Assembly: GCA_037443565.1 (NCBI GenBank)
Contig: JBBIOB010000001.1
Span: forward strand, 97,774 to 161,773
DNA from: Armatimonadota bacterium
Lineage (GTDB): Bacteria > Sysuimicrobiota > Sysuimicrobiia > Sysuimicrobiales > Humicultoraceae
Reading direction: 5' to 3'
Length of the DNA stretch: 64,000 bases
Shown: positions 6,720-37,109 of the stretch, piece by piece
Layout: every line of letters starts with the position of its first letter
Numbering within the stretch: position 1 is the stretch's first letter
Notes under the pieces: model-generated
The model's database searches: none
What the model saw: only the letters and a program-made list of their open reading frames with translations
What the model was told of the DNA's origin: nothing
Position numbers and translations under genes: made by a program

Positions 6720-6787
6720 TTGGGAGCTCGACGGCCCTATCCGCGGTGAAGCCTTCCCCTCGGTCGGCCACGCTGGCCGGTGCATAG

Positions 6788-9281: not shown

Positions 9282-9341
9282 GGGATCGCCTCCGGACGCA
9301 TCTGCACAGGATTTCCCTGCCTCGCGACGAACACCCTCCGC

Positions 9342-20181: not shown

Positions 20182-20232
20182 AGGACACCGGATGGGAACC
20201 GGGGAGGCGGCGGAGCCGCCTCCCCGGTGATA

Positions 20233-21426: not shown

Positions 21427-21483
21427 CGCAGGTTCCTTCTTCGCGTTCTGCCATGATGCTCCTTCACCAGGCCGACGGGGCGG

Positions 21484-22158
21484 CTAGGCGCGGCCGGCCG
21501 CGCGCATCTGTTCGACGAACTGGATGGCCAGGTTTACCCCGTCCTGTGCCGTCTCGCCGTAGCCATCCGCCTGGATCTTCCGGCAGTAGGCCTCTGTGAC
21601 CGGCCCGCCACCGACCATGATCGTGTGTGTCTCGCGTATGCCGCGGGCATCGAAGAACTCGATCACCTCGCGCATCGACGGCATGGTCGTGGTCATGAGG
21701 GCTGAGAGCCCCACGATCTGGGCGCCGGTCTCCTCGGCCTTCTCCACGAACTTCCCGGGGTGCACGTTCACCCCAAGGTTGTGGACCTCGAAGCCCGCGA
21801 CCTTGAGCAGCGTCCCGAACAGGTCCTTGCCGATCGAGTGGACGTCGCCCTTGACGGTGCCGATCACGGCCACGCCGCGCTTCAGCCGGCCTTCACCCAT
21901 GGCCATGATGGCCGGTTCCAGGACCTTCATCGCCTCCAGGAAGACCTTGGCGGCCATCATCAGCTCGGGCAGAAAGATCTCCATCGCCTGGAACTTCTGG
22001 CCGATGATCGCGATGCCGCGCGACAGGCCGTCGTCGATGAGTTTCAGGGGAGGAATGCCCGCGTCCAGGCCCTTCTGGACCAGGCGCGCGCCCGCCTCGG
22101 CGTCGTAGTCGAGGACCGCCTCTCTCAGACCTTCGAGGATCGCTGCTTCATCACTCAT
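21484..22158 (-). CDS. Corrinoid (cobalamin)-binding protein of a methyltransferase system (MtmC/MttC/MetH B12-domain-like)
   Basis: 225 aa from the ATG at 22158. N-terminal four-helix cap plus a Rossmann B12-binding domain with a DxHxxG His-ligand motif (GDVHSIGKD) and GxxG loops. Confidence 0.75.
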   Translation of the reverse strand: MSDEAAILEGLREAVLDYDAEAGARLVQKGLDAGIPPLKLIDDGLSRGIAIIGQKFQAMEIFLPELMMAAKVFLEAMKVLEPAIMAMGEGRLKRGVAVIGTVKGDVHSIGKDLFGTLLKVAGFEVHNLGVNVHPGKFVEKAEETGAQIVGLSALMTTTMPSMREVIEFFDARGIRETHTIMVGGGPVTEAYCRKIQADGYGETAQDGVNLAIQFVEQMRAAGRA

Positions 22159-22175
22159 GGTCTCCTCCACGGCTG

Positions 22176-23549: not shown

Positions 23550-23570
23550 GGCTGGCTCCTTTCGTCTCTG

Positions 23571-24503
23571 TCAGGTGCGACGCCTGCGCACCGCCGCGGC
23601 GATGAGCCGGATGTGCTCGGGCGTGCTGCCGCAGCAGGCACCGACGATGTTGGCCCCGGCGTCGAGGATCGCGGGATACGCCCCTGCCATCGCCTGAGGC
23701 GACAGGTCGTACACGGTGCGATCGTCCACGATCTTGGGCATCCCGGCGTTGGGATACGCCGCCAGCCGGCCGGAGGTTACCCCCCGCATCTCCCGGATGA
23801 TGACCGCGGCGCGGACCGGACCGCCCTCCCCGCAGTTGCAGCCCACGATGTCCGCGCCCGCGTCGAACAGCAGCCGTGCGACGTCCGTCGGCGTCGAGCC
23901 CCACAGCGTCCGGTCTATGCCCTTCCGGGCGCTATACTGGAAGAACATCGTGGCCATCACGGGCAGGTCGGCGGCGGACTTCGCGGCCTTGATGGCGGTC
24001 ACGACCTCATCGGGGACCATCATCGTCTCCACGGCGAAGAGGTCTACGCCGCCCTCGGCCAGCGCAACGGCCTGCTCGGTGAAGTTGGCGCGCATCTCGT
24101 CCAGCGAGGTGTCGCCCATTGCCGCGAGCGTGTCGGGGAGATGCCCTGTCGGTCCGATCGACCCTGCCACGTACTTCCCCGGTGGGCAGACGGCGCGCGC
24201 CAGGCGCGCGGCCATGATGCTCAGGTCGCGCGCCCGTCCCTGCAGCTCGTAGGGCGCCAGCTTGAGGCGTGTGCCGCCGAACGTATTCGTCTCGACGATG
24301 TCGGCGCCGGCGTCGAAGTAGGCCCGGTGAATGCCGGAGACCACCTCGGGGTGGGTTTCGTTCCACAGCTCCGGGCAGGCGCCATCGACGAGGCCGGCCT
24401 CGAACAGCATCGTGCCCATGGCGCCGTCGAGGACCAGCACCTCGGAGGTCAACCGGTCGAGCAGCTCGCGCCCTCTCGGATGCATATCCCGTCCCTCACT
24501 CAA
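23571..24503 (-). CDS. Homocysteine/thiol S-methyltransferase domain protein (MetH Hcy-binding module as a separate protein)
   Basis: 310 aa. N-terminal VLVLDGAMGTML, zinc-ligand motifs GCNCG and GACCGSTPEHI as in the MetH/BHMT Hcy-binding barrel. Confidence 0.75.
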   Translation of the reverse strand: MSEGRDMHPRGRELLDRLTSEVLVLDGAMGTMLFEAGLVDGACPELWNETHPEVVSGIHRAYFDAGADIVETNTFGGTRLKLAPYELQGRARDLSIMAARLARAVCPPGKYVAGSIGPTGHLPDTLAAMGDTSLDEMRANFTEQAVALAEGGVDLFAVETMMVPDEVVTAIKAAKSAADLPVMATMFFQYSARKGIDRTLWGSTPTDVARLLFDAGADIVGCNCGEGGPVRAAVIIREMRGVTSGRLAAYPNAGMPKIVDDRTVYDLSPQAMAGAYPAILDAGANIVGACCGSTPEHIRLIAAAVRRRRT

Positions 24504-26355
24504 ACCGTAACGCCGTCAGAAACGCGTCCTGGAACTCAGGATGCGTTGCCAGCGAAACGTGTCTGATCTGTCCGGCCAGCGCGTCGGCGCGCCGGCGCTC
24601 GGTCTCGGAGACCAGGGCCATCTGCGCGCCCAGGCCCGCGGCGTTGCCGACGTAGCTCACGCGGTCGGCCGGCATCCGCGGGATGAGGCCGATTCGAATC
24701 GCGCTGCGGATGTTCAGGTAGTTGCCGAATCCGCCGGCCAGCATCAGCTCCGCGAGGTGATCCGCGGGTGTGCCGCTCAGGCGCTGCAGCATCGCGAGCC
24801 CGCTTCGGATCGCGCCCTTGGCGAGCTGCACCTGGCGGATGTCCGCCTGCGTCAGGACGATGTCCCTGCCCGTGGCGCTCTGGGACCCGGGCGCCAGGAC
24901 AAACGCTGGGAGCCCGTCGGGCAATGTGATGATGCGGCGGCGCAGCGCGTCAGGCACGGCTCCGGACGGCTCGGGGTGCAGCCGGCCTGTGGCGTCCACG
25001 ACCCCCGCGTCGAGCAGGCCGGCGATCGCATCGAGGATCCCCGAGCCACACACCCCCAGGGGTGATCCCGCGCCGATCACGTGGGAATCCACATCCTGCT
25101 CGATGCGGACCTGATCGATGGCGCCCCGGGCGGCGCGCATGCCGCACTGGAGCTGTGCACCTTCCAGCGCGGGTCCCGCAGGAGCCGAGCAGGCCGTCAG
25201 GCCGTCCGTGGACGCGAGGACCATCTCGCCGTTCGTGCCGATGTCCACGGCGATCCGGGGTTCGCGGCTCTCGTCGAGCCGGGTGGACAGGACCATGCCC
25301 ACGGCATCCGCGCCCACGAAGCCCGCCACGATGGGCAGCAGGAAGATGGGCGTCGGCGGACGCAGGCGCAGCCCCACCTCGGCGGCGGTGACTTTGACGC
25401 TCCGCCGGACGGCGGGCGCATACGGCGCCTGACCGACATAGGTGGGGTCGATGCCCAGGAAGAGGTGATGCATCACCGTGTTCCCCACGACGACGCCCTT
25501 GTAGATACGATCGCGATCGACGCCGGCCCTGGCGCACGCGTCCTCGATCTGCTCGTTCAGCATCCGGATGATACGGGTGTGGAGCTGACGAACGTTCGAT
25601 GGGCCTTCCTGCGCGAAGGCGATCCGTGACATCAGGTCGCCGCCGAAGGCCGCCTGAGCGTTGAGGCCGGATGCGGTGGCCGCCACGACCCCGCTCGCCA
25701 GATCCACCAGATACCCGACAACCGTCGTCGTGCCGATGTCAAAGGCGATGCCGTAGGCCTCGGCACGAGTGTCCCCGGGTTCGGCGGCCAGCAGCGTGCG
25801 GTTGAAGCGCGCCAGGGTGAAGCCGGCGGGCTGCGATCGCAGCAGCAACGGGATGCGCCGGAGCGCCTCGAGGGACGCGTCGGCCACCTCCCCCTCGAGG
25901 CGGCGCAGCACCGCTTCCAGGTCCGAGTCGGGGCGATCCTCGTCGGACGGTGGCAACGCGGTGACGAACATCTTGTGCACACCTGAATCCAGGGTGAACC
26001 CCGCCGCCGAGCGCAGCGTCCGGGTCTCGGCCAGGATCTGAAACGCGGTCTCTTCGAAGATCGGCGCGGCCGCGACCGTCAGATCGCCCCAGGCTTCGGT
26101 CTGGCAGGCCAGGCGGTAGCGCTCTCTTACCTCGTCGTCGCCGAGTTGGATCCGGTCGGCCAGCCCGGCCGGCGGCGGGTTTCCGGCGACGATCTGCACC
26201 CGGCAGCTCCGGCAGCGGCCGCGCGCCCCGCAGGTCGCCACGATCTCGCACCCAGCCTGCTGCGCCGCCTGGAGGATCGTCGTGCCCACGGGCACATGCA
26301 CCCGGTATCCGTTGGGCGCAAACACGACGGTGACCGTGGTGCCGGTCATGGCCAT
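24496..26355 (-). CDS. RamA/RACo-like reductive activator of corrinoid proteins (N-terminal 2Fe-2S ferredoxin plus ASKHA ATPase domain)
   Basis: 619 aa. N-terminal plant-type ferredoxin motif CGARGRCRSCRV, then a large actin-like ATPase region (DIGTTTV..., DIGTNGE...) as in COG3894 activators. Confidence 0.7.
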   Translation of the reverse strand: MAMTGTTVTVVFAPNGYRVHVPVGTTILQAAQQAGCEIVATCGARGRCRSCRVQIVAGNPPPAGLADRIQLGDDEVRERYRLACQTEAWGDLTVAAAPIFEETAFQILAETRTLRSAAGFTLDSGVHKMFVTALPPSDEDRPDSDLEAVLRRLEGEVADASLEALRRIPLLLRSQPAGFTLARFNRTLLAAEPGDTRAEAYGIAFDIGTTTVVGYLVDLASGVVAATASGLNAQAAFGGDLMSRIAFAQEGPSNVRQLHTRIIRMLNEQIEDACARAGVDRDRIYKGVVVGNTVMHHLFLGIDPTYVGQAPYAPAVRRSVKVTAAEVGLRLRPPTPIFLLPIVAGFVGADAVGMVLSTRLDESREPRIAVDIGTNGEMVLASTDGLTACSAPAGPALEGAQLQCGMRAARGAIDQVRIEQDVDSHVIGAGSPLGVCGSGILDAIAGLLDAGVVDATGRLHPEPSGAVPDALRRRIITLPDGLPAFVLAPGSQSATGRDIVLTQADIRQVQLAKGAIRSGLAMLQRLSGTPADHLAELMLAGGFGNYLNIRSAIRIGLIPRMPADRVSYVGNAAGLGAQMALVSETERRRADALAGQIRHVSLATHPEFQDAFLTALRFE

Positions 26356-26379
26356 CGACTCGGGAGGATCATGGATCGG

Positions 26380-27009
26380 TCAGGCATCAGCACGGGAGGC
26401 CGGGATCAGGCCGTAGATCCCGGTGATGGACTTCCGCGGCAGCATCACACATGACTCGGTCAGGTGCACCGACAGGTCGCCGCCTGCAAACGTCGAGAAC
26501 AACACTCGCTGCTGGTCCAGGGGCCAGTCCGCAAAGCCCGGCGCTGTGCGCCCGGTCAGGCGTAGCCCGCGTGCGGCGGCCTCGGCCCGCAGCCTGTCCC
26601 GCAGCTGCCCGGTCAGCGCCTCCAGCGCGACCCATCCCGCTGTGTCGAGCAGTAGCCCGTCGGCGAATTGTTCCTCCGCAATCAACGCCTGTACGCGGCC
26701 TTCCAGCGCCGGTCCAATGGTCAGGATGACGAGCACGGCCTCAGTGGCGTCATGGAGGAGCCGTGCCAGGGCGCGGCTGGTGAACTCGGTCCCGTCGGCC
26801 AGGCGCACGCAGCCGTCGGGTTCGGCGCGGCTCACCGGTTCCCGCCGCATCCACCCGCGCGGCACCACCAGCGCCTCGGCCAGCGATGCCATCCGGCGCG
26901 CCGTCTCACTGACGACCGGGGCGATCCTGTCAAGATCCCGGTACTTCTGCAGCCGCAGGATGAGATCCGGATCCACGCGCGGCCGTTGGAGGTCCAGATT
27001 CTCGACCAT
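26380..27009 (-). CDS. Methionine synthase reactivation (AdoMet-binding) domain homolog, standalone
   Basis: 209 aa. C-terminal APGFADWPLDQQRVLF...LTESCVMLPRKSITGIYGL parallels E. coli MetH RPAPGYPACPEH...LTESFAMWPGASVSGWYF. Confidence 0.6.
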   Translation of the reverse strand: MVENLDLQRPRVDPDLILRLQKYRDLDRIAPVVSETARRMASLAEALVVPRGWMRREPVSRAEPDGCVRLADGTEFTSRALARLLHDATEAVLVILTIGPALEGRVQALIAEEQFADGLLLDTAGWVALEALTGQLRDRLRAEAAARGLRLTGRTAPGFADWPLDQQRVLFSTFAGGDLSVHLTESCVMLPRKSITGIYGLIPASRADA

Positions 27010-27012
27010 GGC

Positions 27013-27888
27013 TCAGCCTGACGACCGCGGGCCTCCTCCTGCCGCTCTGGCCGCCGGCGGCGTCTTCATGAAGTCTAACGTCCCGGCGCGCACGCCGGCC
27101 AGGTAGCGGCGGCAGAACTCGTCCTGCCCTAGCAGCATCTGGGCCGTGGTCAGGTTGGCCATCAGCCTCCGGTCGAGCGGATCGAGGATGAACGCGTCCA
27201 TGCCGTGCGCCATACACAGGACGAGGAACACCTGATTGATCTGGGCGCGATAGGGCAGCCCGAACGAGACGTTGCTGAGCCCGCAGATCGTCCGCACCTC
27301 GGGAAACCGCGCCTTGATCAGGTCCAGCGCCCCCAGGAAGACCACGGCAGACCGGCTGTCCGTCGCGATGGGGAACAGCAGCGGGTCGACGAGGATGTCG
27401 TGCGGCGGCACCCCGACCGCGGTGAGGCCATCGATCAGCCTGGACGCGAACTCCAGCTTGCCCGCGGCCGTGGACGGAATCCCCTGGTCGTCCATGCACA
27501 GGGCCACGACCTCCGGCTGGAACTCCTGGATCACCGGCAGGAGGGCCGCCCACCGGTCCTGCTCCAGGTTGATCGAGTCCAGCAGGGCCTTGCCCCGGTG
27601 CACCTCGAGGCCCCGGCGCAGCGCGATCGGGTTGGGGCTGTCGATGCTGATCCGCACGTCGAGGGCGTCCTGGATGGTCCGCACGGCCCACTCCATGCAC
27701 GCGACCTCGTCCTCCATCAACGTCGCGCAGTTGACATCCACCAGGTGCGCGCCGGCCTCGACCTGCCGCCGGGCGAGATCGACGATGGCTGCGGCATCGC
27801 GGGCTTCCAGCAGCGGCTGGATCTGCTTGCGGGTGGAGTTGATGAGCTCGCCGACGATCAGCGTGGCCGGTCCTCCGGATGTCTTCCA
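27013..27888 (-). CDS. Methyltetrahydrofolate:corrinoid methyltransferase (pterin-binding MeTr/MtrH/MetH folate module); start codon unresolved
   Basis: TLIVGELINSTRKQIQ...EAGAHLVDVN is the canonical pterin-binding (DHPS-like) barrel N-terminus. No ATG/GTG/TTG lies in frame between the upstream gene stop (27858) and the domain start. The only in-frame starts are over 150 nt upstream, inside the MetF-MetV gene. GGAGGA plus a 9-nt spacer precedes a CTG at about 27864. Confidence 0.6.
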   Translation of the reverse strand, partial: WKTSGGPATLIVGELINSTRKQIQPLLEARDAAAIVDLARRQVEAGAHLVDVNCATLMEDEVACMEWAVRTIQDALDVRISIDSPNPIALRRGLEVHRGKALLDSINLEQDRWAALLPVIQEFQPEVVALCMDDQGIPSTAAGKLEFASRLIDGLTAVGVPPHDILVDPLLFPIATDSRSAVVFLGALDLIKARFPEVRTICGLSNVSFGLPYRAQINQVFLVLCMAHGMDAFILDPLDRRLMANLTTAQMLLGQDEFCRRYLAGVRAGTLDFMKTPPAARAAGGGPRSSG

Positions 27889-29444
27889 GACACCATTTCC
27901 AACCTCACCAGTCGCATGCCTCCTCCTTGGAAGTGGGTGACCCAGGAGCAGGTGTTCCGGCTCTCTTCGGGGACCGGAGGGATCAAGACCTCTTCCAGGT
28001 CGGCCAGCCGGCCGGCCTTCCTGGACAGACGGTAGATCCCGTTGTGGATGCACTCCCGATCGCCGAACTCGCAGATGCCGTCGTGCGTGCCGCCGCACGG
28101 TCCGTTCGCCAGTCCCTTCGGACAGGTCTCCGGGCAGACGTACGCGGTGGCCGGGAGCCGGCAGGAGCCGCACCCCCGGCAGCCGACCAGCGGGCGTTTG
28201 ATCGCCAGCTCAAGCATGAGCAGGAACCCGTCCGACCCGAACCGGGCGCCGAGCCCCCGGACCAAAGGCCCCACCACGCGCGCGCCCGGTGAGCCGTCGT
28301 GGAAGGCGAGACGGTCGACCAGGTCCAGCGCGCGGAACCGCAGCGACTCGCCGAGTCTTGGGCCGATATTGCCGTCGAGCGTGCCCGCATCCAGGTACAG
28401 ACCGTGCTCGGGCGCGACCTGCGCCTGCCGGTCATCGGCGAATGTCAGCGCCCGCCGCCAGGCCCTCTGCCAGTCCTCGAGGGTCGGGCATTCCGTCGCG
28501 ACGCCGTCGACCGTGTCGAGCAGCCGGGCGACCTTCGAATAGGTGTGAAGGCCGCTGATCTGCGCCCCGGCATAGCCCATCAGACGCGCGCCCACCACCT
28601 GCAGCGCCAGACGTCGGTACGCCGCATCCCGGCCACTGTCGGGCGCGCGCGACTCTTCCTCGAGCTTCTCGGCCAGGTCATTGGTGATCGTCACGCCGGG
28701 CAGGCCCACCTGACGGATGCGACGGCACCGGCCGGGCGTGAGGAAGAGCAATCCCGCCAGTAGCGGGGCGGGATATCCCCGGCCGGCGAGGACCCGGCGC
28801 GCCTCCTCAAGCTTGCACATGTCCCAGCCGATCTGCGTGACCAGGAAGTCGGCGCCCGCCCGCAGCTTCTTGCCTGCCTTGAGGTACTGATTCAGCAGGT
28901 CTTCTTCACGGTACTTGAATGGACAGACCGCCGCGGCCAGAAGACAGGCGCCGGAGTGCTGTCGGGCGGCCCGAAGGGCGTGCACCGAGTCCAGATACCG
29001 CACCGGCCGGTCGGCGGGCGGCGCCTTCAGGCCGTCTCCGGTGACGAGCAGGAACGTGTCGAGCCCCAGCGCTCCGGCCCGCCGCAGGTGCTCCTCCAGG
29101 TTGTGCAGGCTGCGATCCTTGCCGGCCAGGTGGACGATCGGCATCGCACCGGAGACCTCCAGGACCCTGTGGCCGATCGCGACCGGATCGTGGTCGTGGT
29201 CGGATCGGCTGCGGTCGGTCAGGGCGAGCGCGGCGATCCTGGGGTCACCTCGGATCGCCTTTGCCAGGGCAAGGATGGGCGCCACGGCGCCGTCGAAGGG
29301 CTCGCTCGCCACCGGCGACGCGTACTCGATCGTGATCGCGAACCGGCCGGCGGCCAGCGCCGCGCACAAGCGGTGGGTGCCCGCCTGCCGGAGCACGTCG
29401 CTCATCTGGGACGTAACGTACGGAGGGGGCGATACCCGGGGCAA
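27858..29444 (-). CDS. Methylenetetrahydrofolate reductase MetF domain fused to an MTHFR C-terminal (MetV-like, Cys-rich) domain
   Basis: 528 aa. N-terminal FAITIEYASP and the MTHFR barrel. C-terminal CRGCGSCRLPATAYVCPETCPKGLANGPCGG is the MetV-type zinc-ribbon domain. The start may be the internal Met at 29402. Confidence 0.7.
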   Translation of the reverse strand: MPRVSPPPYVTSQMSDVLRQAGTHRLCAALAAGRFAITIEYASPVASEPFDGAVAPILALAKAIRGDPRIAALALTDRSRSDHDHDPVAIGHRVLEVSGAMPIVHLAGKDRSLHNLEEHLRRAGALGLDTFLLVTGDGLKAPPADRPVRYLDSVHALRAARQHSGACLLAAAVCPFKYREEDLLNQYLKAGKKLRAGADFLVTQIGWDMCKLEEARRVLAGRGYPAPLLAGLLFLTPGRCRRIRQVGLPGVTITNDLAEKLEEESRAPDSGRDAAYRRLALQVVGARLMGYAGAQISGLHTYSKVARLLDTVDGVATECPTLEDWQRAWRRALTFADDRQAQVAPEHGLYLDAGTLDGNIGPRLGESLRFRALDLVDRLAFHDGSPGARVVGPLVRGLGARFGSDGFLLMLELAIKRPLVGCRGCGSCRLPATAYVCPETCPKGLANGPCGGTHDGICEFGDRECIHNGIYRLSRKAGRLADLEEVLIPPVPEESRNTCSWVTHFQGGGMRLVRLEMVSGRHPEDRPR

Positions 29445-29474
29445 TAGCCCGTCCTGGGGGGATCGCGGTCCGCG

Positions 29475-30725
29475 TTACTTCTGGAGGTACCGGACCGCCG
29501 CTTCTGTGCGCGTGTGGACCTGGAGCTTGTCGAAGATGCTCCGCAGATGGCCGTGAACCGTCCAGGCACTGATCCCGAGCCGCTGGGCGATCTCCTTGTC
29601 CACATATCCCTTGCTCAGGGCCTCGAGAATCTCTTGCTCGCGGGGCGTCAGTTGGGCCATGGTGCGAGTCTCGTCCCCGGCCGGCGCGTCGAAGAGGCTC
29701 TGGAAGTAACGACGGATGCGCTGGGAGACCTGCACCATCCGCATCGTCGGCGCCAAAGGAAGCCCCAGGGGTTCCAGCAGCAGCCCGGGCGGTCGTCGGC
29801 GGAGGATGTACCCGGCGCGCACGCCGCCGAAGGAGAGGAACAGGCGATCGCTGTCGCTGTACGTGCCGTAGGTGAACACGGGAAGGTCTGGATGCCGGGT
29901 GCGCAGTCCCTCGGCGCACGCGCTTGCGCCGATGCCTGGAAGGTCTCGGTTGAGCAGCACAAGCGCAGGTCTGACGTCCGAGGTGAGTCGAAGCGCCTCT
30001 TCAGCGGCGGCCAGGATCGCGACGGTCAATCCCGGAGGGTGGCGTTCGACGCACGAGGCCAGCGTGCGGCCCACACCCGGGTCAGCCTCCACGATCCAGA
30101 CCACGCCTTCACGTGTCGGCTCGGTGCGCCTGCTCAGGCCGTCCGGATTCCCTTCGGGAGTCGTGACGAGGGTTCCGTAGGTGCAGGCCAGGGGGTCCAT
30201 CGCCCAGAGGACGGCGACGGTGAGCTCCCGCGGAAACCGCTCCCTGGCCGCCGACCACCCGGCCGTCAGGATGGTGCGGTAGATCGTGGCCGCCCGCCGC
30301 GCCGCGTCTGTTCGCGTTGCGGTCCCCAAAGCGAAGTAGTGGCCTTCACCGTCATGCTCAATCCGCGCCGAAAACTCGCCTGGGTGCGCGGGCCTGAGGC
30401 CCTCGGTGTACCGGCGCACCAGGAGCCGGCGACTCCAGTACCTGGCCTGATCCCTCACGGCGGCAGGAGGCGCCGGCGCGATACGCGGCCGGGATTGCGC
30501 GATCGCGGCATCCCATCCCCGGGTGAGGATGGCGCGGAAGAGCGCACGTGCGCGCCTCGCCGCCTCGATGCGCGGCCCCGCGCCGAGCGAGACGGTATGC
30601 CGCCGTCCCTGATGCTGGATCTTGACCGACCAGCCCCGCACGCGGAGCAGTCGGCCGCCCCGGGTGTACGAGTTCCTGAACACCCGTCGGGTCCAGTAGC
30701 CGATGCTTGGACTCTGCTTGGACAT
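29475..30725 (-). CDS. LuxR-family transcription regulator: two tandem AP2-like DNA-binding domains, a degenerate receiver domain and a LuxR HTH
   Basis: C-terminal LTPREQEILEALSKGYVDKEIAQRLGISAWTVHGHLRSIFDKL is a LuxR HTH. The central REC-like fold has N at the phospho-acceptor position (LVLLNRDLPG). Two N-terminal repeats (YWTRR...FSVKIQHQGRRHTVSLGAG...AARRA...ILTRGW and YWSRR...FSARIEHDGEGHYFALGTA...AARRA...ILTAGW) resemble AP2/integrase-type domains. Confidence 0.65.
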   Translation of the reverse strand: MSKQSPSIGYWTRRVFRNSYTRGGRLLRVRGWSVKIQHQGRRHTVSLGAGPRIEAARRARALFRAILTRGWDAAIAQSRPRIAPAPPAAVRDQARYWSRRLLVRRYTEGLRPAHPGEFSARIEHDGEGHYFALGTATRTDAARRAATIYRTILTAGWSAARERFPRELTVAVLWAMDPLACTYGTLVTTPEGNPDGLSRRTEPTREGVVWIVEADPGVGRTLASCVERHPPGLTVAILAAAEEALRLTSDVRPALVLLNRDLPGIGASACAEGLRTRHPDLPVFTYGTYSDSDRLFLSFGGVRAGYILRRRPPGLLLEPLGLPLAPTMRMVQVSQRIRRYFQSLFDAPAGDETRTMAQLTPREQEILEALSKGYVDKEIAQRLGISAWTVHGHLRSIFDKLQVHTRTEAAVRYLQK

Positions 30726-30880
30726 GAACTGGCAGCATCGTACCACATCTCCGCGCCCATCTGCCCGGCCCGGGGACACCTGGCGGCGCCCCCGGTCCCT
30801 TGGACGGGCTATTGTTGCGGCGCGCGGCCTCCCTGTACAGTGGGGTGGGTCGAAGGAGTAGACGACGCAGAGGAGGATCC

Positions 30881-33328
30881 GTGAAGTCTGAGGCGCAGGC
30901 GGTCATCATCGGTGGCGGGGTCTATGGGTGCAGCATCGCGTATCACCTCACCCGGATGGGGTGGCGCGACGTCGTGCTGGTGGAGAAAGGTGGGCTGACG
31001 GGCGGCGCCACCTTTCACGCCGCCGGCCTGGTCGGGCAGCTCCGCGGCTCGGTGACGCTCACACGGATGATCATGTACAGCGTGGAGCTCTACCGCGCGC
31101 TGCTGGCGGAGACCGGCCACGATCCCGACTGGCGCGAGACCGGGAGCCTGCGGCTCGCGTCGACCCCTGAACGCATGATCGAGCTCAAGCGCCACGCGGC
31201 CACGGCCCGGACCTTCGGCCTGCCCATGGAGCTGCTGACGCCGAAGGAGGCGGTCGACCTCTTCCCGGTGATGAGCCCCGAGGGGCTGCTGGGCGCGGCA
31301 TATCTCCCCACGGACGGCAGCGTCGACCCCAATGGTCTGACCTTTGCCTTCGCCAGGGGTGCGAGGAACTACGGTGCGGAGATCTCCACCGAGACCGAGG
31401 TCACCGGGATCACCGTGCGGGACGGCCGGGTCCGGGGCGTCGTCACGAACCGCGGGACGATTCGGACCGACGTGGTGGTGAACTGCGCGGGAATCTGGGC
31501 GGCGACCATCGGAGCCATGGCGGGCGTCACGGTCCCGGTCGTCGGCATCGAGCACCAGTACCTCCTCACCGGCCCGGTCGAGGGGACGCACCGCCGCATG
31601 CCGGTGGTGCGCGATCCGGACCTGCTCATCTACTTCCGCGAAGAGGTCCGCGGGCTGTGCATCGGTGGCTACGAGGCCAACCCGATTCCCTTCGGGCTCG
31701 ATGGGATCCCTGACGACTTCCACCACCGTCTGCTCGCGCCCAACTGGGAGCAGTTCGAGCAGCTCGCGAAGAACGCCGCGATCCGCATTCCCGCCGTGGA
31801 GAAGGCCGGTGTGCACAAGCTTATCAACGGGCCCGACGGATTCACCCCTGACGGCGACCTGATCCTGGGCGAGGCCCCGGAGGTGCGAGGCTTCTTCGTG
31901 GCCGGAGGCTCTCCGGGCATCGCGTGCGGGGGCGGGGTCGGCAAGGTCATGGCCGAGTGGATCGTCGAGGGCGCGCCCGGTATGGACATGTGGCGCATGG
32001 ACGTCCGGCGCTTCCAGGCGCACTACGCGGACCGGCGCTACGCGGCCGCGCGGGCGCTGGAAACCTACGAGAAGAACTACCTCCTGCATCCGCCATATGA
32101 GGAGCGGGAGTCCGCGCGCGGGCTGCGCCTGAGCCCGCCGCATCCGCGCCTGCGGGCGCTTGGCGCAGCCTTCGGCGAGAAGGCGGGCTGGGAGCGGCCG
32201 AACTGGTTTGCCAGCAACGAACCGGCGCAGGCCGCGGGCACCCCCCACACTCCTGCGCCGGCAGACTGGGCGCCGGCCGGATGGGCACGGCTCAACTGGT
32301 CGCCGGCGATCGGTGTCGAGCACCGGGCGGTGCGGGAAGCGGCCGGCCTGTTCGACTTCACCTCGTTCAGCAAGTTCGAGATGGAGGGACCGGGTGCGCT
32401 CAAGACCCTGCAGTGGCTGACCGACAATCAGATGGACAAGCCGCCCGGCAGCGTGATCTACACTCAGATGCTCAATGCGCGCGGCGGGATCGAGTGCGAC
32501 CTGACCGTCACCCGCCTTTCGGCCGAGCGCTTCATGATCGTCACCGGGAGCGGTTTTGGGGTGCACGATCTCGACTGGATCCGGCGGCACCTGCCGGACG
32601 ACGGCTCGGCGGCGATCCGTGAGGTCACGGCGGAGCTGTCCTGCATCGGCGTGTGGGGGCCGAACGCGCGGGAGATTCTGCGGCGGGTATGCGACGACGA
32701 CGTTTCGAATGCGGCGTTTCCGTACATGACGTGCAGGGAGATTCAGATCGTCGGTGTGCCCGTGCGCGCTCAGCGCGTGACCTACGTGGGCGAGCTGGGC
32801 TGGGAGCTGTATGTGCCGATCGGAGATGGCCTGAAAGTCTGGGACGCGCTGTGGGAGGCGGGACGGCCGTTTGGGCTTCGGCCCATTGGCTATCGCGCCG
32901 TCGACTCGCTGCGGCTGGAGAAGGCATACCGCTACTGGAGCGTCGACATCACCCCCGAGTACACGCCCTATGACTCCGGCCAGGCGTTCTGCGTCAGGCT
33001 CGACAAGGGCGACTTCCAGGGCCGCGGGGCGCTGCTGCGGCAGAAGGCCGACGGGCTGACGCAGCGGCTCTGCTGCCTGGTGCTGGCCGACCCCCGAATC
33101 GTTGCGCTCGGGAACGAGCCGGTGTACGAGGCCGAGCGGGTGGTCAGCCGGGTGACGAGCGGTGGATACGGGTACACGGTCGGCGAGAGTATCGCCTACG
33201 CGTACCTACCGGTCGGCCTGTCGGCCGTCGGCACGGGGTTGGCTGTCAGCATCGACGGTGAACGTGTTCCGGCCACGGTGGCGCGCGAGCCGCGCTACGA
33301 TCCCGCGAACAGCCGGATCAAGGCCTGA
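30881..33328 (+). CDS. Dimethylglycine/sarcosine dehydrogenase family protein (FAD DAO domain plus GcvT-like folate-binding domain), paralog 1
   Basis: 815 aa from the GTG at 30881 (AGGAGG 4 nt upstream). GGGVYGCSIAYHL dinucleotide fold, FHAAGL (covalent-FAD His motif), C-terminal aminomethyltransferase fold. About 65% identity to paralog 2. Confidence 0.8.
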   Translation: MKSEAQAVIIGGGVYGCSIAYHLTRMGWRDVVLVEKGGLTGGATFHAAGLVGQLRGSVTLTRMIMYSVELYRALLAETGHDPDWRETGSLRLASTPERMIELKRHAATARTFGLPMELLTPKEAVDLFPVMSPEGLLGAAYLPTDGSVDPNGLTFAFARGARNYGAEISTETEVTGITVRDGRVRGVVTNRGTIRTDVVVNCAGIWAATIGAMAGVTVPVVGIEHQYLLTGPVEGTHRRMPVVRDPDLLIYFREEVRGLCIGGYEANPIPFGLDGIPDDFHHRLLAPNWEQFEQLAKNAAIRIPAVEKAGVHKLINGPDGFTPDGDLILGEAPEVRGFFVAGGSPGIACGGGVGKVMAEWIVEGAPGMDMWRMDVRRFQAHYADRRYAAARALETYEKNYLLHPPYEERESARGLRLSPPHPRLRALGAAFGEKAGWERPNWFASNEPAQAAGTPHTPAPADWAPAGWARLNWSPAIGVEHRAVREAAGLFDFTSFSKFEMEGPGALKTLQWLTDNQMDKPPGSVIYTQMLNARGGIECDLTVTRLSAERFMIVTGSGFGVHDLDWIRRHLPDDGSAAIREVTAELSCIGVWGPNAREILRRVCDDDVSNAAFPYMTCREIQIVGVPVRAQRVTYVGELGWELYVPIGDGLKVWDALWEAGRPFGLRPIGYRAVDSLRLEKAYRYWSVDITPEYTPYDSGQAFCVRLDKGDFQGRGALLRQKADGLTQRLCCLVLADPRIVALGNEPVYEAERVVSRVTSGGYGYTVGESIAYAYLPVGLSAVGTGLAVSIDGERVPATVAREPRYDPANSRIKA

Positions 33329-33334
33329 CGGTCC

Positions 33335-34657
33335 GTGCCGGCGCCCTCCGAGCCAACGCCCGCCGAACGCGCCCTGGTTGTCTTCCCGGCAGGCTCCCCG
33401 GGCGAGTACAACCTCCCACCCAACCTGGTGACCGTCCTGGTTCGTGGGGAAGGCGCGTCGGTGTGGGACGCGCAGGGGCGCCGGTTCACCGACTTCACCA
33501 TGGGCTGGGGCTCGGTGCTGCTCGGCCACGCGCATCCCGCGGTGGTTGGCGCGGTCCGCGATCGCGCCGGCGACGGATCCAACTTCGCCTATGTGAGCGA
33601 GCCAGCGCTCAAGCTCGCGGAGGAGCTGGTCCGGGCGGTGCCCTGCGCCGAGCGCGTCCGGTTCTGCGCGTCCGGAACCGAAGCGACCGCCTACGCCGTC
33701 CGGCTGGCGCGTGCCGCTACCGGGCGGCCGAAAGTGCTGAAGTTCGAGGGCGCCTACCACGGCGCGAACGAGGTCGGGACCGCCAGTCTGTTTCCGACCC
33801 GCATGCTGGAGTTTCCGCAGGCCGAGCCCACGTCGGCCGGCCTGCCCCCGGGGGCCGTCGCCAACATCCTGGTCGGGCCGTACAACGATCTCGAGACGAC
33901 CGCGCGCATCACTGCGGCGTACCGGCGTGAGCTGGCCGCGATCATCGTGGAACCGCTCCACCGATGCACGCCGCCGCGCTCCGGCTTCCTCCAGGGGTTG
34001 CGCGACCTGGCCACCGAGGCCGGCGCGCTATTGGTGTTCGACGAGGTGGTGACCGGGTTTCGCCTGGCTTACGGTGGCGCGCAGGAGTACTACGGCGTGC
34101 GCCCCGACCTCGCGGCGCTGGGAAAGGCGCTCGGCGGCGGATATCCGATCGGCGCGGTCGCCGGACGTGCGGACATCCTCGACCTGGTGCGCGAGGATCG
34201 GCTGGGTCGGGACGACTACGTGTGGTTCGCATCATCCCTGGGCGGGAATCCCATCTCCACCGCGGCCGGGCTGGCGACGCTGGCCGAGCTGCGGAAGCCC
34301 GGCACCTACGATCGCCTCTTCGCGCTGGGGACGGGGCTACGCGACGGGCTGCGGTCGGTGCTGGAGGATGAAGGGATAACGGCCCATGTGCAGGGCGACG
34401 GTCCGCTGGCCGCGGTAGTGTTCACCGATCAGGAGGTCACCGACTACCGCGCGGCCGCGCGCGCAGACCGGCGGCGCGGCCGCGCGTTCCTCCTGGGCCT
34501 CTTTCGCCGCGGGATCTTCCTGAATCCCATGTCCACCAAGCTCTACCTTTCGCTCGCCCACACCGAGGCCGACATCGCGCGGCTCCTGGAGGCCGCGCGC
34601 GCGACCTTACGGGAGGAGATCAAGATCGCATCGCCTGGAGGTCACGATGAAGTCTGA
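33335..34657 (+). CDS. Class III (PLP-dependent) aminotransferase, glutamate-1-semialdehyde aminomutase-like
   Basis: 440 aa starting at the GTG at 33335. AT-III fold (GWGSVLLGHAHP, ASGTEA, EVVTGFR, PLP-Lys region); sits between the two DMGDH paralogs. Confidence 0.75.
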   Translation: MPAPSEPTPAERALVVFPAGSPGEYNLPPNLVTVLVRGEGASVWDAQGRRFTDFTMGWGSVLLGHAHPAVVGAVRDRAGDGSNFAYVSEPALKLAEELVRAVPCAERVRFCASGTEATAYAVRLARAATGRPKVLKFEGAYHGANEVGTASLFPTRMLEFPQAEPTSAGLPPGAVANILVGPYNDLETTARITAAYRRELAAIIVEPLHRCTPPRSGFLQGLRDLATEAGALLVFDEVVTGFRLAYGGAQEYYGVRPDLAALGKALGGGYPIGAVAGRADILDLVREDRLGRDDYVWFASSLGGNPISTAAGLATLAELRKPGTYDRLFALGTGLRDGLRSVLEDEGITAHVQGDGPLAAVVFTDQEVTDYRAAARADRRRGRAFLLGLFRRGIFLNPMSTKLYLSLAHTEADIARLLEAARATLREEIKIASPGGHDEV

Positions 34658-37109
34658 GGCACAGGCCGTCGTCATCGGCGGCGGGATCGTCGGCTGCAGC
34701 ATCGTCTACCACCTGTCGTTCATGGGATGGCGCGACGTCGTGCTCGTGGACAAGGCCGATCTCACCAGCGGATCCACCTGGCATGCCGCCGGGCTCGTGG
34801 GACAGCTGCGGGGCTCGCTCAGCCTGACGCGCATCATGATGTTCAGCGTCGAGCTGTATGCGCGCCTCGCCCAGGAGACCGGGCAGGAGACGGACTGGCG
34901 CCAGTGCGGCAGCCTGCGGCTGGCCTCGACGCCCCTGCGCATGGAAGAGAACCTGCGCCAGGCCGCGCTGGCGCGGACATTCGGGCTGCCCGTCGAGGTG
35001 CTGAGCGCCCACGAGGCGGTAGGGCTGTTCCCGCTGCTGAGTGAGACGGACCTCGTCGGCGCGGTCTACATGCCGACGGACGGCCGCGTGGACGGCAGCG
35101 GTGTGACGTTTGCAATGGCGCGCGGCGCGCGGAGCCGGGGCGTGGACATCTATACCAATACGACGGTGCAGCAGATCCAACTCAAGAACGGTCACGTGGA
35201 CGCGGTGGTCACCGACCGGGGAACCATCCGGACGCCGGTCGTGGTCAACGCCGCGGGCATGTGGGCCGACCAGATCGGCCGGATGGCCGGTGTGCGCGTG
35301 CCGATCGTCCCAATGCAGCACCAGTACCTGCTGACCGAGCCGATCGACGGCATGCGGCCCGAGTTCCCGGTGGTGCGCGATCCCGACCTGCGCGTGTACG
35401 CGCGCGAGGAGGTCCGGGGTCTCGTCGTCGGCGGGTTCGAGGCGCAGCCCGAGCCGTGGTCGACCGACGGTGTGCCCAACGAGTTCGTCCACCGGCTGCT
35501 GCCGACCAACTGGCCGATCTTCGAGCCGGTGGTCCGCAACGCGGCAAAGCGCATCCCGGCGTTCGAGCACGCCGAGATCTCGAAGGTCATCAACGGGCCC
35601 GAGGCGTTCACGCCCGACGGGGAGTTCATGATGGGCGAGGCGCCCGGCGTCCGGGGGTTCTTCGTCGCCGCGGGTTTCAACGCGTACGGGATCGCGGCCG
35701 GCGGCGGCGTGGGCCGCGTGCTTGCCGAGTGGATCGTCGACGGCCAGCCGAGCCTGGACGTATGGCGGATGGACATCCGGCGGTTCGGGCCGCAGTACGC
35801 GCACGCGTCGCACACGATAAGCCGGTCGGTGGAGGCATACACGCGCCGGTACGGCGCCGTGAGCCTGCCGTTCGAGGAATGGGACACCGCCCGCCGCTTC
35901 CGGTTGAGCCCGGTCTATCCGCGCCTAGTGGACCTGCGTGCGGCATTCGGCGAGAAGGGCGGATGGGAGCGGCCGAACTGGTTTGCCAGCAATGAGCCTG
36001 CCGGCGGCGGCACGGGCGCCGGGACCGTGGCGGCCCCTGCGGGGAGCTGGACCCCGCTGGGCTGGGCGCGGCACAACTGGTCGCCGGCCATGGCTGCGGA
36101 GCACCTGGCCGCGCGAGAGGCGGCAGGCCTCTTCGACTTCACGTCGTTCAGCAAGCTCGAGGTCAAAGGCGCGGGGGCGCTGGCGGCGTTGCAGTGGCTG
36201 ACGGACAACGAGATGGACAGGCCGCCGGGCAGCGTGACCTACACGCAGATGCTGAACGCCCGGGGCGGTATCGAGTGCGACCTGACGGTCACGCGACTGG
36301 GCCCGGACAGGTTCATGATCGTCACCGGCAGCGCCTTCGGCCCCCATGACCTGGACTGGATCCGCAAGCACCTGCCGGCCGACGGTTCGGTGACGGCAAC
36401 GGACATCACGACGGACCTCGCCTGCATCGGGCTATGGGGCCCCCGCGCCCGCGACGTCCTGCGGCGGGTGTGCGAGGAAGACCTGTCCGAGGCCGCGTTC
36501 CCCTACATGACGTGGCAGGAGATCCGTGCGGCAGGGGTTCCGGTGCGCGCGCTGCGCGTGACGTACGTCGGCGAGCTCGGCTGGGAGCTGTACGTGCGCC
36601 CCGACGATGCCCTGCGCCTCTGGGACGCGCTGTGGGAAGCGGGACGGCCGCTGGGCCTGCGGCCGGTCGGCTACCGCGCGGTGGACTCGCTGCGACTCGA
36701 GAAGGGCTACCGGTACTGGAGCGCGGACATCACGCCGGACTACACACCGTACGAGTCCGGCCAGGCGTTCTGCGTCAAGCTCGACAAGGGCGACTTCCAG
36801 GGCCGCGGCGCGCTGCTGCGGCAGAAGGCTGAAGGATTGACGCGGATGCTGTGCTGTCTGGTGCTGGCCGACCCGCAGCGGGTCGTGCTCGGCAACGAGC
36901 CGGTGTTCGAGGACGATCGGCTGGTGAGTCGCGTCACAAGCGGCGGATACGGCTACTACGTGGGCGAGAGCATCGCCTACGCGTACCTGCCGGTGCGCCT
37001 GGCGACGCTGGGTGCCGAGGTGAGCATCGAGGTCGACGGGATGCGCATCCCGGCGACGGTCCAGCGCGACCCGCGCCACGACCCGACCGGCAGCCGCATC
37101 AAGGCATAG
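34647..37109 (+). CDS. Dimethylglycine/sarcosine dehydrogenase family protein, paralog 2
   Basis: 820 aa, ATG at 34647 overlapping the aminotransferase stop by 11 bp. GGGIVGCSIVYHL, STWHAAGL (covalent FAD His), GcvT-like C-terminal domain. Confidence 0.8.
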   Translation: MKSEAQAVVIGGGIVGCSIVYHLSFMGWRDVVLVDKADLTSGSTWHAAGLVGQLRGSLSLTRIMMFSVELYARLAQETGQETDWRQCGSLRLASTPLRMEENLRQAALARTFGLPVEVLSAHEAVGLFPLLSETDLVGAVYMPTDGRVDGSGVTFAMARGARSRGVDIYTNTTVQQIQLKNGHVDAVVTDRGTIRTPVVVNAAGMWADQIGRMAGVRVPIVPMQHQYLLTEPIDGMRPEFPVVRDPDLRVYAREEVRGLVVGGFEAQPEPWSTDGVPNEFVHRLLPTNWPIFEPVVRNAAKRIPAFEHAEISKVINGPEAFTPDGEFMMGEAPGVRGFFVAAGFNAYGIAAGGGVGRVLAEWIVDGQPSLDVWRMDIRRFGPQYAHASHTISRSVEAYTRRYGAVSLPFEEWDTARRFRLSPVYPRLVDLRAAFGEKGGWERPNWFASNEPAGGGTGAGTVAAPAGSWTPLGWARHNWSPAMAAEHLAAREAAGLFDFTSFSKLEVKGAGALAALQWLTDNEMDRPPGSVTYTQMLNARGGIECDLTVTRLGPDRFMIVTGSAFGPHDLDWIRKHLPADGSVTATDITTDLACIGLWGPRARDVLRRVCEEDLSEAAFPYMTWQEIRAAGVPVRALRVTYVGELGWELYVRPDDALRLWDALWEAGRPLGLRPVGYRAVDSLRLEKGYRYWSADITPDYTPYESGQAFCVKLDKGDFQGRGALLRQKAEGLTRMLCCLVLADPQRVVLGNEPVFEDDRLVSRVTSGGYGYYVGESIAYAYLPVRLATLGAEVSIEVDGMRIPATVQRDPRHDPTGSRIKA

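Follow-up and report, generated by a model that had tools for sequence, protein, structure and literature searches.

A NarL/FixJ-type regulator with tandem N-terminal repeats, an Asp-less receiver-like domain and a putative promoter element at a methylated-amine locus of Sysuimicrobiota

The regulator gene, its neighbourhood and its degenerate receiver

The 64-kb stretch of contig JBBIOB010000001.1 analysed here, referred to below as the window, comes from an Armatimonadota bacterium placed by GTDB in Sysuimicrobiota and contains, on its minus strand, the gene of a 416-residue transcriptional regulator lying between a corrinoid methyltransferase operon and a divergently transcribed DMGDH operon. 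The protein consists of two tandem N-terminal repeats, a β-hairpin, a receiver-like domain lacking the phospho-acceptor Asp and a LuxR/GerE helix-turn-helix (HTH) domain, and it is an atypical NarL/FixJ regulator from a sizeable, uncharacterised and largely Verrucomicrobiota-centred family. A previous inspection of the DNA letters without database searches (the sequence-only reading) had proposed a four-part architecture of this kind. Its observations on the sequence features are confirmed, since repeats, receiver-like fold and LuxR HTH could all be detected, and its interpretation of the regulator as a whole is partly supported.

The regulator gene is real. Translation from the ATG at 30725 gives a protein beginning MSKQSPS, which fits the conserved N-terminus of the family, MSKQRPS, so that the longer open reading frame (ORF) starting with GTG (to 30779) is not needed. 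An AlphaFold model of the full-length protein, computed from a 38-sequence alignment, has a mean predicted local distance difference test (pLDDT) score of 84. In this model the β-hairpin preceding the receiver-like domain has strands at residues 166-176 and 179-187, and its residues E167, W174, P178, Y183 and T188 are invariant in the family alignment. A tblastn search with the protein revealed no paralogue in the window. The MSKQRPS extreme N-terminus itself (window 30705-30725, minus strand; columns 35-41 of family alignment A1) is kept in most two-repeat members across phyla, and is followed by a variable linker, often rich in Pro, Ala and Arg, before repeat 1 begins.

Pfam scans upheld the genomic context described earlier, with the methyltransferase operon downstream on the same strand and the DMGDH cluster divergent. 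Five further orthologous contexts were found, with regulators 57-66% identical to the window protein. Counting the window, the regulator lies directly upstream of a corrinoid methyltransferase operon in six of six contexts, and a divergent DMGDH-like gene is present in five of the six, being absent in locus L003. More distant members of the family (39-44% identity) flank genes for GH127, arabinofuranosidase, rhamnosidase, LamG and prepilin-like proteins or Rieske oxygenases. The idea of a regulator of the methylamine locus thus stands for its local role, for which synteny in six of six contexts and the presence of a shared element in both flanking promoters (see below) speak, but not for the family as a whole: that all members are dedicated to methylamine loci was rejected because distant ones adjoin glycosidases, LamG and prepilin-like genes.

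The size of the family was assessed in two ways. A word-indexed search returned at least 287 relatives of 400-470 residues sharing the same full-length architecture; those that bear a name in their source appear as ‘response regulator transcription factor’ or as ‘LuxR C-terminal-related’. The N-terminal 195 residues were then used for an exhaustive profile search over representative clusters (50% identity), which gave 1,093 clusters at E ≤1e-3, a number that falls to 493 at ≤1e-10 and to 120 at ≤1e-30. For family-wide comparisons of loci we used the 80 best loci in species-representative genomes. These come almost entirely from Verrucomicrobiota metagenome-assembled genomes (MAGs), with the addition of Candidatus Fervidifonticultor, which belongs to CSP1-3/Sysuimicrobiota (PMC11604079); related MAGs carry the NCBI name Armatimonadota. 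Some genomes encode two copies of the regulator. There is also a shorter variant of 340-380 residues comprising only a repeat-2-like domain, the hairpin, the receiver and the HTH. It was seen in loci L080-L082, L084, L087 and L089, where the regulator lies at about 5830-6985 (to 7074 in L084), has 342-382 residues and begins with an unrelated tail of about 20-55 residues. These variants occur on contigs of up to 546 kb and so are not fragment artefacts.

The receiver-like domain is recognisable more readily by structure than by Pfam. Response_reg (PF00072) matches residues 209-293 with 21.4 bits, under the cutoff of 30.2, and covers profile positions 1-83 of 111; many relatives do exceed the cutoff. 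NCBIfam shows only a distant NarL-like similarity over residues 220-414, and the sequence match to NarL has E 3.6e-15. The C-terminal half of the model matches full-length LiaR, StyR, FixJ, VraR, RcsB and DesR in Foldseek at E 1e-7 to 1e-6 (1.7e-7 for full-length LiaR, StyR and FixJ). The modelled fold is the (βα)5 of receivers, with β1 to β5 and α1 to α4 in place and α5 short or degenerate.

As the sequence-only reading had it, the active site of this domain is degenerate. Asn259 (in LVLLNRDLPG) aligns with the phospho-acceptors D59 of NarL and D54 of DosR, so that no normal Asp is found there, and Arg309 (in GYILRR) aligns with NarL K109. The position corresponding to NarL S87 is Gly. Canonical features of a phosphorylatable receiver, namely acceptor Asp, Lys and Thr/Ser after β4, are thus all missing, and the protein fits the definition of Asp-less receivers as having a receiver fold with a non-Asp acceptor (PMC4395418). 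Since Asn replaces the acceptor Asp, the domain should no longer be able to take a phosphoryl group. Of 117 full-length relatives, 99 have Asn at the acceptor site, 11 have Ser, six Asp and one Gly, and the predominance of Asn (85% of members) suggests selection for this residue and marks the loss of the acceptor, as judged from the alignment, as a selected family trait. The Lys position is divided between Lys (58) and Arg (52), Arg thus occurring in about half of the family, and the third position between Gly (51), Ser (33), Thr (14) and Ala (11). The first acidic residue, E213, is Glu in 114 of the 117.

That the protein is nevertheless a response regulator under kinase control, with another residue taking the phosphoryl group or an unlinked kinase supplying it, is in our view very improbable. 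In favour of such control, the acidic residues E213 and D215 are kept and the pocket seems intact, a few relatives keep the acceptor Asp, and the window protein has an Asp at 261, two residues past Asn259. Position 261 is, however, mostly Ser, Ala, Asn, Gly or Thr in members, and the prevalence of Asn, Gly and Arg at the three catalytic positions argues in the same direction. The genomic surroundings agree: the ORFs scanned around the regulator, reaching ~12 kb downstream and 14 kb upstream of it, yielded no kinase, and in five orthologous contexts the flanking 6-8 kb to each side yielded none either. Of eight contexts inspected, seven gave no kinase gene; the exception is L005, where a receiver-plus-HATPase_c kinase-like gene lies ~5 kb upstream of the regulator. 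Moreover, RitR and SecR, two characterised regulators with receivers of the Asn or Asp-less type, work without phosphorylation.

A conserved element on both sides of the regulator gene

The exact 13-mer GGACGGGCTATTG has only two copies in the window, one on each side of the regulator gene. The first (29442-29454, minus strand) begins 21 nt past the regulator stop codon and the second (30802-30814, plus strand) lies 77-89 nt upstream of the regulator ATG; both point outward, one to the methyltransferase operon and the other to the DMGDH operon. With two mismatches allowed, a single further match appears in the window, and this one lies within a coding sequence. The core of each copy is preceded by a C-rich run, giving an element of ~20 bp with the consensus CCCC(N)-RRAC-NGG-NN-ATTG (Table 1). 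The terminal ATTG supplies the TTG of a -35-like hexamer, and at both copies the layout TTGnnn-N18-TAnnnT is sigma-70-like. When the window was scanned with a position weight matrix (PWM) of the element, the two copies scored 24.0 and 18.3, respectively, and everything else at most 7.9.

The element recurs in five orthologous loci, L003, L008, L009, L001 and L010 (Table 1). The motif and its N21 distance to the TAnnnT hexamer are kept between loci, while the sequence of the spacer differs. In L003, for example (about 9330-9350), TACGGT is followed after 9 nt by a GTG start, a spacing equal to that in the window. Because the -10-like hexamer on the methyltransferase side lies only 9 nt before the probable ATG at 29405, this arrangement suggests that the mRNA of the methyltransferase operon may be leaderless or near-leaderless. 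The mechanically assigned ORF starts TTG 29444 and TTG 30800, which overlap the element copies, are probably wrong, the likely starts being ATG 29405 and GTG 30881 instead. A simple consensus scan of 29300-31000 returned no sigma-70 promoter and no intrinsic terminator, Rfam recorded no RNA family in 29200-31100, and comparison of the orthologous loci showed no second conserved DNA element beside the putative operator.

Across the 80 family loci the strict pattern [GA][GA]AC.GG..ATTG yields 39 matches, compared with three for the reversed control. We then used the PWM (20 nt, 20.9 bits) with a score of at least 10 as the threshold for a site. A site lies within 170 nt past the regulator stop codon in 30 of 76 loci but in only five of 480 control windows from the same loci. 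In 56 of the 80 loci a site is found just past the stop (36 loci), divergently within 700 nt upstream (31 loci) or in both places. Expressed as densities, these are 2.14 sites per kb past the stop and 0.59 per kb upstream, against 0.046 per kb elsewhere, corresponding to 47-fold and 13-fold enrichment. The single-repeat variants share the core of the element; a strong copy of the downstream motif, ending in ATGG or ATAG, is present in three of their six loci (L080, L082 and L087).

Two further observations concern variant forms of the element. Seven loci (L028, L030, L045, L055, L056, L060 and L065), a marine, Pedosphaerales-type subgroup, carry an identical variant, CCCCCCAAAATTGGTTATTC, about 14 nt past the regulator stop. 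In L028 the next gene is of the MttB family (trimethylamine or glycine-betaine methyltransferase-like), which provides a further link of the family to quaternary-amine demethylation. In L068 (7267-7380) and L076 (7228-7340), tandem heptamers occupy the position of the motif directly past the regulator stop: GGTCATT, CGTCATT and CGTCAGT in L068, in a run starting from AACGGGGTCATTG, and GGTCAGT in L076. These runs may have arisen from the 3' half of the element by microsatellite expansion.

The HTH domain offers a possible reader of the element. Described earlier as a classical LuxR HTH, it is recognised as such by Pfam (PF00196, residues 358-411, E 1.7e-16), with 60 bits against a cutoff of 23.5, and is near-invariant across the family alignment. 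Within its recognition helix (window residues 385-398) the variable residue x of WTVH-x-H tracks the fourth base of the element core among sites in L001-L090: Gly goes with a core RRAC, Asn with AAAT or AAAA (17 of 22 sites) and His with AAAC-C-GG. This covariation hints that the HTH reads the core and makes the WTVH-x-H residue a candidate specificity determinant. Inspection of 21 sites by eye for strict dyad symmetry or covariation within the motif found nine Watson-Crick combinations at the innermost pair, where about five were expected, an excess too small to be decisive.

The element might instead be a promoter signature recognised by some other factor, for instance a global regulator or an alternative sigma factor, or be a leftover terminator-like hairpin, rather than being the operator of the regulator beside it. 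We consider this unlikely. Its C-run can pair with its G-run in a short hairpin, and the element often begins 10-45 nt past the stop codon, but it also occurs, without a T-run, in divergent intergenic regions containing no gene end, always directed towards the downstream gene, and the terminator reading was rejected on these grounds. GAAAC and GGAC resemble the -35 cores of extracytoplasmic function (ECF) promoters, yet a conserved CGTC-type -10 at N16-17 is lacking and TAnnnT stands about 18 nt after TTGnnn, at sigma-70-like spacing, for which reason the ECF reading was likewise rejected. Although the family loci contain 76 further PWM matches elsewhere, the window has only two sites, which argues against a general promoter feature, and the regulator is the only gene constantly beside the element across phyla and differing operons.

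The genes behind the element are varied. Rieske/Ring_hydroxyl_A oxygenases occur there in five of ten sampled loci and also in L006; others encode an MttB-family methyltransferase, a glucosamine-6-phosphate isomerase-like protein, prepilin-like proteins and LamG/Ig proteins. Many members of the family, though not all, thus adjoin genes for N-methyl or quaternary-amine demethylation. In the window operon itself the S-methyltransferase is homocysteine-S-methyltransferase-like and the activase is a reductive activase of the RACo type. The MtmB-family ORF (22176-23549, minus strand, 457 residues) matches Pfam positions 4-450 of 450 with E 2.7e-86 and shares the operon with the RACo, corrinoid-protein, pterin-binding methyltransferase and MTHFR-like genes. 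It is uninterrupted and, having no in-frame stop, looks like a bacterial homologue without pyrrolysine. The ORF of 209 residues (26380-27009, minus strand) has no Pfam match; its position is kept in five other operon contexts (192-218 residues), and the L010 version has a weak match to Met_synt_B12, the methionine synthase activation domain.

Table 1. Coordinates of the regulator gene, its domains, the putative element copies and the neighbouring operons in the window, with the element in orthologous loci
Feature	Position	Strand	Basis
Regulator gene	29475..30725	-	ORF translation; homologues of 400-470 residues with full-length coverage; family alignment A1
Repeat 1 (residues 8-78)	30492..30704	-	Repeat homology; AlphaFold; charge; weak Arm-DNA-bind_3 match
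Repeat 2 (residues 94-164)	30234..30446	-	Repeat homology; AlphaFold; charge; single-repeat variants
Conserved β-hairpin (residues 165-188, ELTVAVLWAMDPLACTYGTLVT) between repeat 2 and receiver-like domain	30162..30233	-	Invariant residues; model strands
Receiver-like domain (residues 207-330), degenerate active site	29736..30107	-	Sub-threshold Pfam; NCBIfam; Foldseek; model
Codon AAC, Asn259 at phospho-acceptor Asp position	29949..29951	-	Alignment to NarL/DosR; codon read from sequence
Codon CGC, Arg309 at conserved receiver Lys position	29799..29801	-	Alignment to NarL K109; codon read from sequence
LuxR/GerE HTH (residues 358-411), recognition helix ISAWTVHGHLRSIF	29493..29654	-	PF00196 match; family near-invariance
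Operator-like 20-base element CCCCCCAGGACGGGCTATTG, 14 nt past regulator stop codon, facing methyltransferase operon	29442..29461	-	Exact 13-mer; PWM; orthologues
Second element copy GTCCCTTGGACGGGCTATTG, 70-89 nt upstream of regulator ATG, facing DMGDH operon	30795..30814	+	Exact 13-mer; PWM; orthologues
-10-like hexamer TACGTT, 21 nt after ATTG, 9 nt before probable MTHFR-like ATG (29405)	29415..29420	-	Sequence; L003 spacing
-10-like hexamer TACAGT, 21 nt after ATTG, upstream of probable DMGDH start GTG 30881 (preceded by GGAGGA)	30836..30841	+	Sequence
Putative target operon 1: MTHFR-like, pterin-binding methyltransferase, conserved 209-residue protein, RACo, S-methyltransferase, MtmB-family, corrinoid protein, ABC transporter	17403..29405	-	Pfam scans; synteny
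Putative target operon 2: DMGDH/sarcosine-dehydrogenase-like, class III aminotransferase, second DMGDH-like	30881..37109	+	Pfam scan; synteny
Element in L003: methyltransferase side GGACTGGCTATTG; no DMGDH gene in locus			
Element in L008: methyltransferase side AGACAGGCTATTG; DMGDH side, exact 13-mer			
Element in L009: methyltransferase side, exact 13-mer; DMGDH side GGACAAGGGATTG			
Element in L001: methyltransferase side GAACCGGTGATTG; DMGDH side AAACGGGGGATTG			
Element in L010: methyltransferase side AAACCGGTGATTG; DMGDH side AAACCGGGGATTG			

The tandem N-terminal repeats

The two repeats (residues ~8-78 and ~94-164) share 45% identity over 65 residues (BLASTP E 9e-18), and their family profiles match each other in hhalign with a probability of 99.2 and E 8e-20. 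The duplication noticed earlier is thereby borne out, and the repeats are not of low complexity. A separate model of residues 1-195 has a pLDDT of 87.5; in the core of repeat 1 the AlphaFold values are about 88-97. Each repeat is predicted to form a short helix, three antiparallel strands and a long helix, so that both have the topology of a three-stranded antiparallel sheet plus C-terminal helix at high pLDDT; the hairpin at 166-187 follows. The two differ in character. Repeat 1 is very basic (family mean net charge +12 in 73 residues), and its invariant W, K, Q and R sit on predicted strands. Repeat 2 is milder (family mean +3.7) and abundant in conserved His, Tyr, Phe and Trp. Charge and conserved strand residues lend indirect support to nucleic-acid binding by repeat 1.

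The proposal that the repeats resemble AP2/integrase-type DNA-binding domains fared less clearly. In the Pfam scan GerE passed its cutoff, whereas Response_reg and Arm-DNA-bind_3 both fell below theirs: Arm-DNA-bind_3 (PF13356) matches residues 30-76 of the window protein with 13.9-14.9 bits and E 0.059, the cutoff being 27. It matches at E ≤1 in five of 30 members, with a best E of 0.0017 and always in the identical register. DUF1651, the only other Pfam family seen in more than two N-termini, occurs in four of 30 (best E 0.0045). We also built arm-domain profiles from relatives of IntS and from the sequences of 3jtz/3rmp and 3ju0. Against these P4-type arm profiles repeat 1 gives hhalign E 0.059-0.068, compared with 0.4-0.7 for reversed controls, and repeat 2 gives no arm signal (E 0.09-0.22); over both repeats the reversed controls span 0.1-0.7. 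Repeat 1 is aligned as W-x-V-K-I...G-R-R...S-L-G...A-A-R with W-x-L-K-Y...G-K-E...A-L-G...D-A-R of the arms, as the predicted structure would require.

Structure and profile searches point in several directions at once. Foldseek searches of the N-terminal model against the PDB and BFVD found nothing at E ≤1e-3. The PDB list is mixed, containing tandem double-stranded RNA-binding domain (dsRBD) proteins (best E 0.0099), the arm domains 3rmp_C and 3ju0 (E 0.4-0.7, with 30% identity over 61 columns for 3rmp_C) and the tandem AP2 proteins SIP2 and WRI1. Among the viral models of BFVD the top matches are intron or HNH endonucleases, at E 1.5e-3 to 4e-3; integrases rank below them. The dsRBD matches are of comparable strength to those with arm, AP2 and HNH domains, and so mixed a set does not single out one fold. 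Nothing relevant emerged when PDB sequences were searched with profiles of the repeats, PHROGs gave no meaningful match to the N-terminal module, NCBIfam has no family covering the N-terminus, and a scan of the window protein and 30 members found no dsrm Pfam match. Fold and register are thus compatible with an AP2-like or arm-like domain, but homology is not claimed, since the hhalign scores, though their register is sensible, are insignificant and near those of the reversed controls, and the Pfam and Foldseek results are insignificant too. An AP2/integrase-arm nature of the repeats is a reasonable lead, plausible but unproven.

It is accordingly conceivable, and we give the idea real if minority weight, that the N-terminal module reads no DNA at all and serves as a sensor or in protein-protein or RNA binding (dsRBD-like), leaving recognition of DNA to the LuxR HTH alone. 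The best PDB fold matches are indeed the tandem dsRBD proteins TARBP2 (with the E-value of 0.0099 given above), R2D2, NF90 and DRB4, and the order helix-three strands-helix is common; the similarity to arm domains is insignificant at the sequence level. Since the single-repeat variants bear the same core motif, repeat 1 would be dispensable for recognition of the core, and no additional conserved DNA element is seen beside the putative operator. Repeat 2, moreover, carries little positive charge and has many conserved His, Tyr, Phe and Trp residues. Against this, the charge of repeat 1 and its invariant strand residues are like those of sheet-type DNA readers, the arm DNA-binding family is the commonest and best-scoring recurrent Pfam family in the N-terminus, the viral fold matches are to HNH or intron endonucleases and integrases, and Pfam provides no dsrm match.

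Proposed regulation and comparison with known systems

Our preferred reading, which we hold to be reasonably probable, is that the protein is an orphan one-component regulator acting locally and independently of phosphorylation, which binds the putative element and controls both flanking operons, probably as an activator. It would use a NarL/FixJ chassis of receiver fold plus LuxR HTH, to which two basic helix-three-strand-helix domains and the conserved hairpin have been added at the N-terminus. It would bind the ~20-bp element abutting the -35 TTG of two sigma-70-type promoters that flank its own gene, probably as a dimer through the HTH, perhaps aided by further contacts of the N-terminal sheet domains; additional DNA contacts by an arm/AP2-like sheet are our favoured guess for the role of the repeats. 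Its targets would be the corrinoid methyltransferase/transport operon downstream and the divergent DMGDH operon, and the divergent copy might also feed back on the regulator's own promoter. Activity would presumably be set by a small molecule or metabolite or by the level of the protein, rather than by a kinase, in line with the ligand-gated or signal-independent control suggested by the sequence-only reading. The analysis directly supports the domain architecture, the absence of Asp and Lys from the active site, family conservation, synteny and the co-occurrence of regulator and motif; binding of the motif by this protein, the direction of regulation, the ligand and the function of the repeats are inferred.

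The sign of regulation is suggested by the position of the element. The element directly adjoins the -35 TTG with constant spacing, like the sites of LuxR-, TraR- and NarL-type activators, and activation is therefore the probable mode. A regulator that binds the element as a repressor, to be released by a methylated-amine substrate or an intermediate, seems to us a doubtful alternative. In its favour, the element is in contact with the -35 hexamer, a TTG...TAnnnT core could function without an activator, and repressors often control catabolic operons. On the other side, the element lies wholly upstream of the -35 TTG, at roughly -36 to -53 and with rigid spacing, a position typical of LuxR-, TraR- and NarL-type activators; the -35 hexamers (TTGCCC, TTGTTG and TTGTCT) are poor beyond the TTG; and the nearest functional analogue, SecR, is an activator.

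Several points weigh against control of the element by the regulator as we propose it. The link between motif and regulator is a correlation, and the training sites of the PWM were taken from these very loci, although many high-scoring sites lie outside the training set. About 30% of the family loci have no site near the regulator gene. Inverted repeats are the usual targets of LuxR-type dimers, but the motif shows little symmetry, and a site abutting the -35 could equally serve repression. The correlation between recognition helix and core base ignores the shared ancestry of the sites. All members of the family come from uncultured MAGs and, since six of the 117 relatives retain the acceptor Asp, some members may still be phosphorylated.

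Comparison with known systems places the protein within familiar folds. Its C-terminal half shares the receiver fold and four-helix LuxR/GerE HTH of the NarL/FixJ family (NarL, DosR, LiaR, RcsB and FixJ), from which it differs in Asn259, in Arg for Lys, in Gly at the Thr/Ser position, in its degenerate α5 and, as regards the solved relatives, in about 190 additional N-terminal residues forming the repeats and hairpin. Replacement of the Asp within a receiver fold is also seen in atypical regulators of the HP1043 and ChxR types. RitR has an Asp-less receiver with Asn53 at the acceptor position, hydrogen-bonded to the Glu of the acidic triad, and Asp-less receivers have been reported to be enriched in Verrucomicrobia (PMC4395418). 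Like RitR, the present protein keeps the receiver fold with Asn as acceptor, and E213 and N259 are conserved throughout its family. RitR, however, is of the OmpR type, with a winged helix and no N-terminal extension, in place of the LuxR HTH and tandem module found here.

The closest functional parallel is SecR of Aminobacter, an orphan, Asp-less, RcsB-like/NarL-type activator of methylamine assimilation genes, which is a constitutive dimer and binds the promoters of its own gene and of C1/methylamine-related genes (PMC13199381). Identity with SecR was rejected on length and architecture by comparison with its description: SecR has 215-233 residues, no tandem N-terminal domains, serine-cycle genes and a proteobacterial host, as against 416 residues and corrinoid methyltransferase and DMGDH neighbours here. 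By analogy, SecR would be a functional precedent, from another family, for the regulation of methylamine genes without a kinase.

Two other groups invite comparison. The predicted order of elements in the repeats matches that of P4-like integrase arm domains (Arm-DNA-bind_3; 3jtz/3rmp and 3ju0) and of the AP2/lambda-Int N-terminal fold class, and Pfam, Foldseek and hhalign all align the arm pattern W-x-[VL]-K-[IY]...G-[KR]...[SA]-L-G...A-R in one register; unlike the integrase arms, the domain here forms a tandem duplication joined to a regulator, not to a recombinase. With the class II activators LuxR and TraR the protein has in common a LuxR HTH and a site touching the -35 at fixed spacing, but it has no autoinducer-binding domain and its site is mostly asymmetric instead of a 20-bp palindrome.

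The protein is thus likely to be a local switch for a methylated-amine breakdown locus. A broader view, put forward only tentatively, is that the tandem module represents an undescribed family of arm/AP2-like DNA-binding domains on a pseudo-receiver/LuxR chassis. The result would be a DNA reader made up of several modules, which would move together with its own promoter element, as a cassette of regulator plus target promoter, across Verrucomicrobiota and Sysuimicrobiota and would switch on the demethylation of methylated and quaternary amines (corrinoid MtmB/MttB, Rieske, DMGDH) and other operons in response to metabolites, not kinases.

To our knowledge, how Verrucomicrobiota and candidate phyla such as Sysuimicrobiota regulate their genes has hardly been studied. 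The automatic label ‘response regulator transcription factor’ wrongly implies that the family is under kinase control. The analysis supplies as handles a family of ~1,100 clusters with an unannotated N-terminal domain, a candidate operator with the coordinates of both copies and a link to methylated-amine breakdown genes, namely corrinoid MtmB/MttB systems, GbcA-like Rieske oxygenases and DMGDH. Breakdown of methylated amines matters for the cycling of carbon and nitrogen. If the pairing of motif and regulator is true, regulons of uncultured Verrucomicrobiota would become predictable from sequence alone, and the N-terminal module would be a new building block among bacterial DNA-binding or sensing domains.

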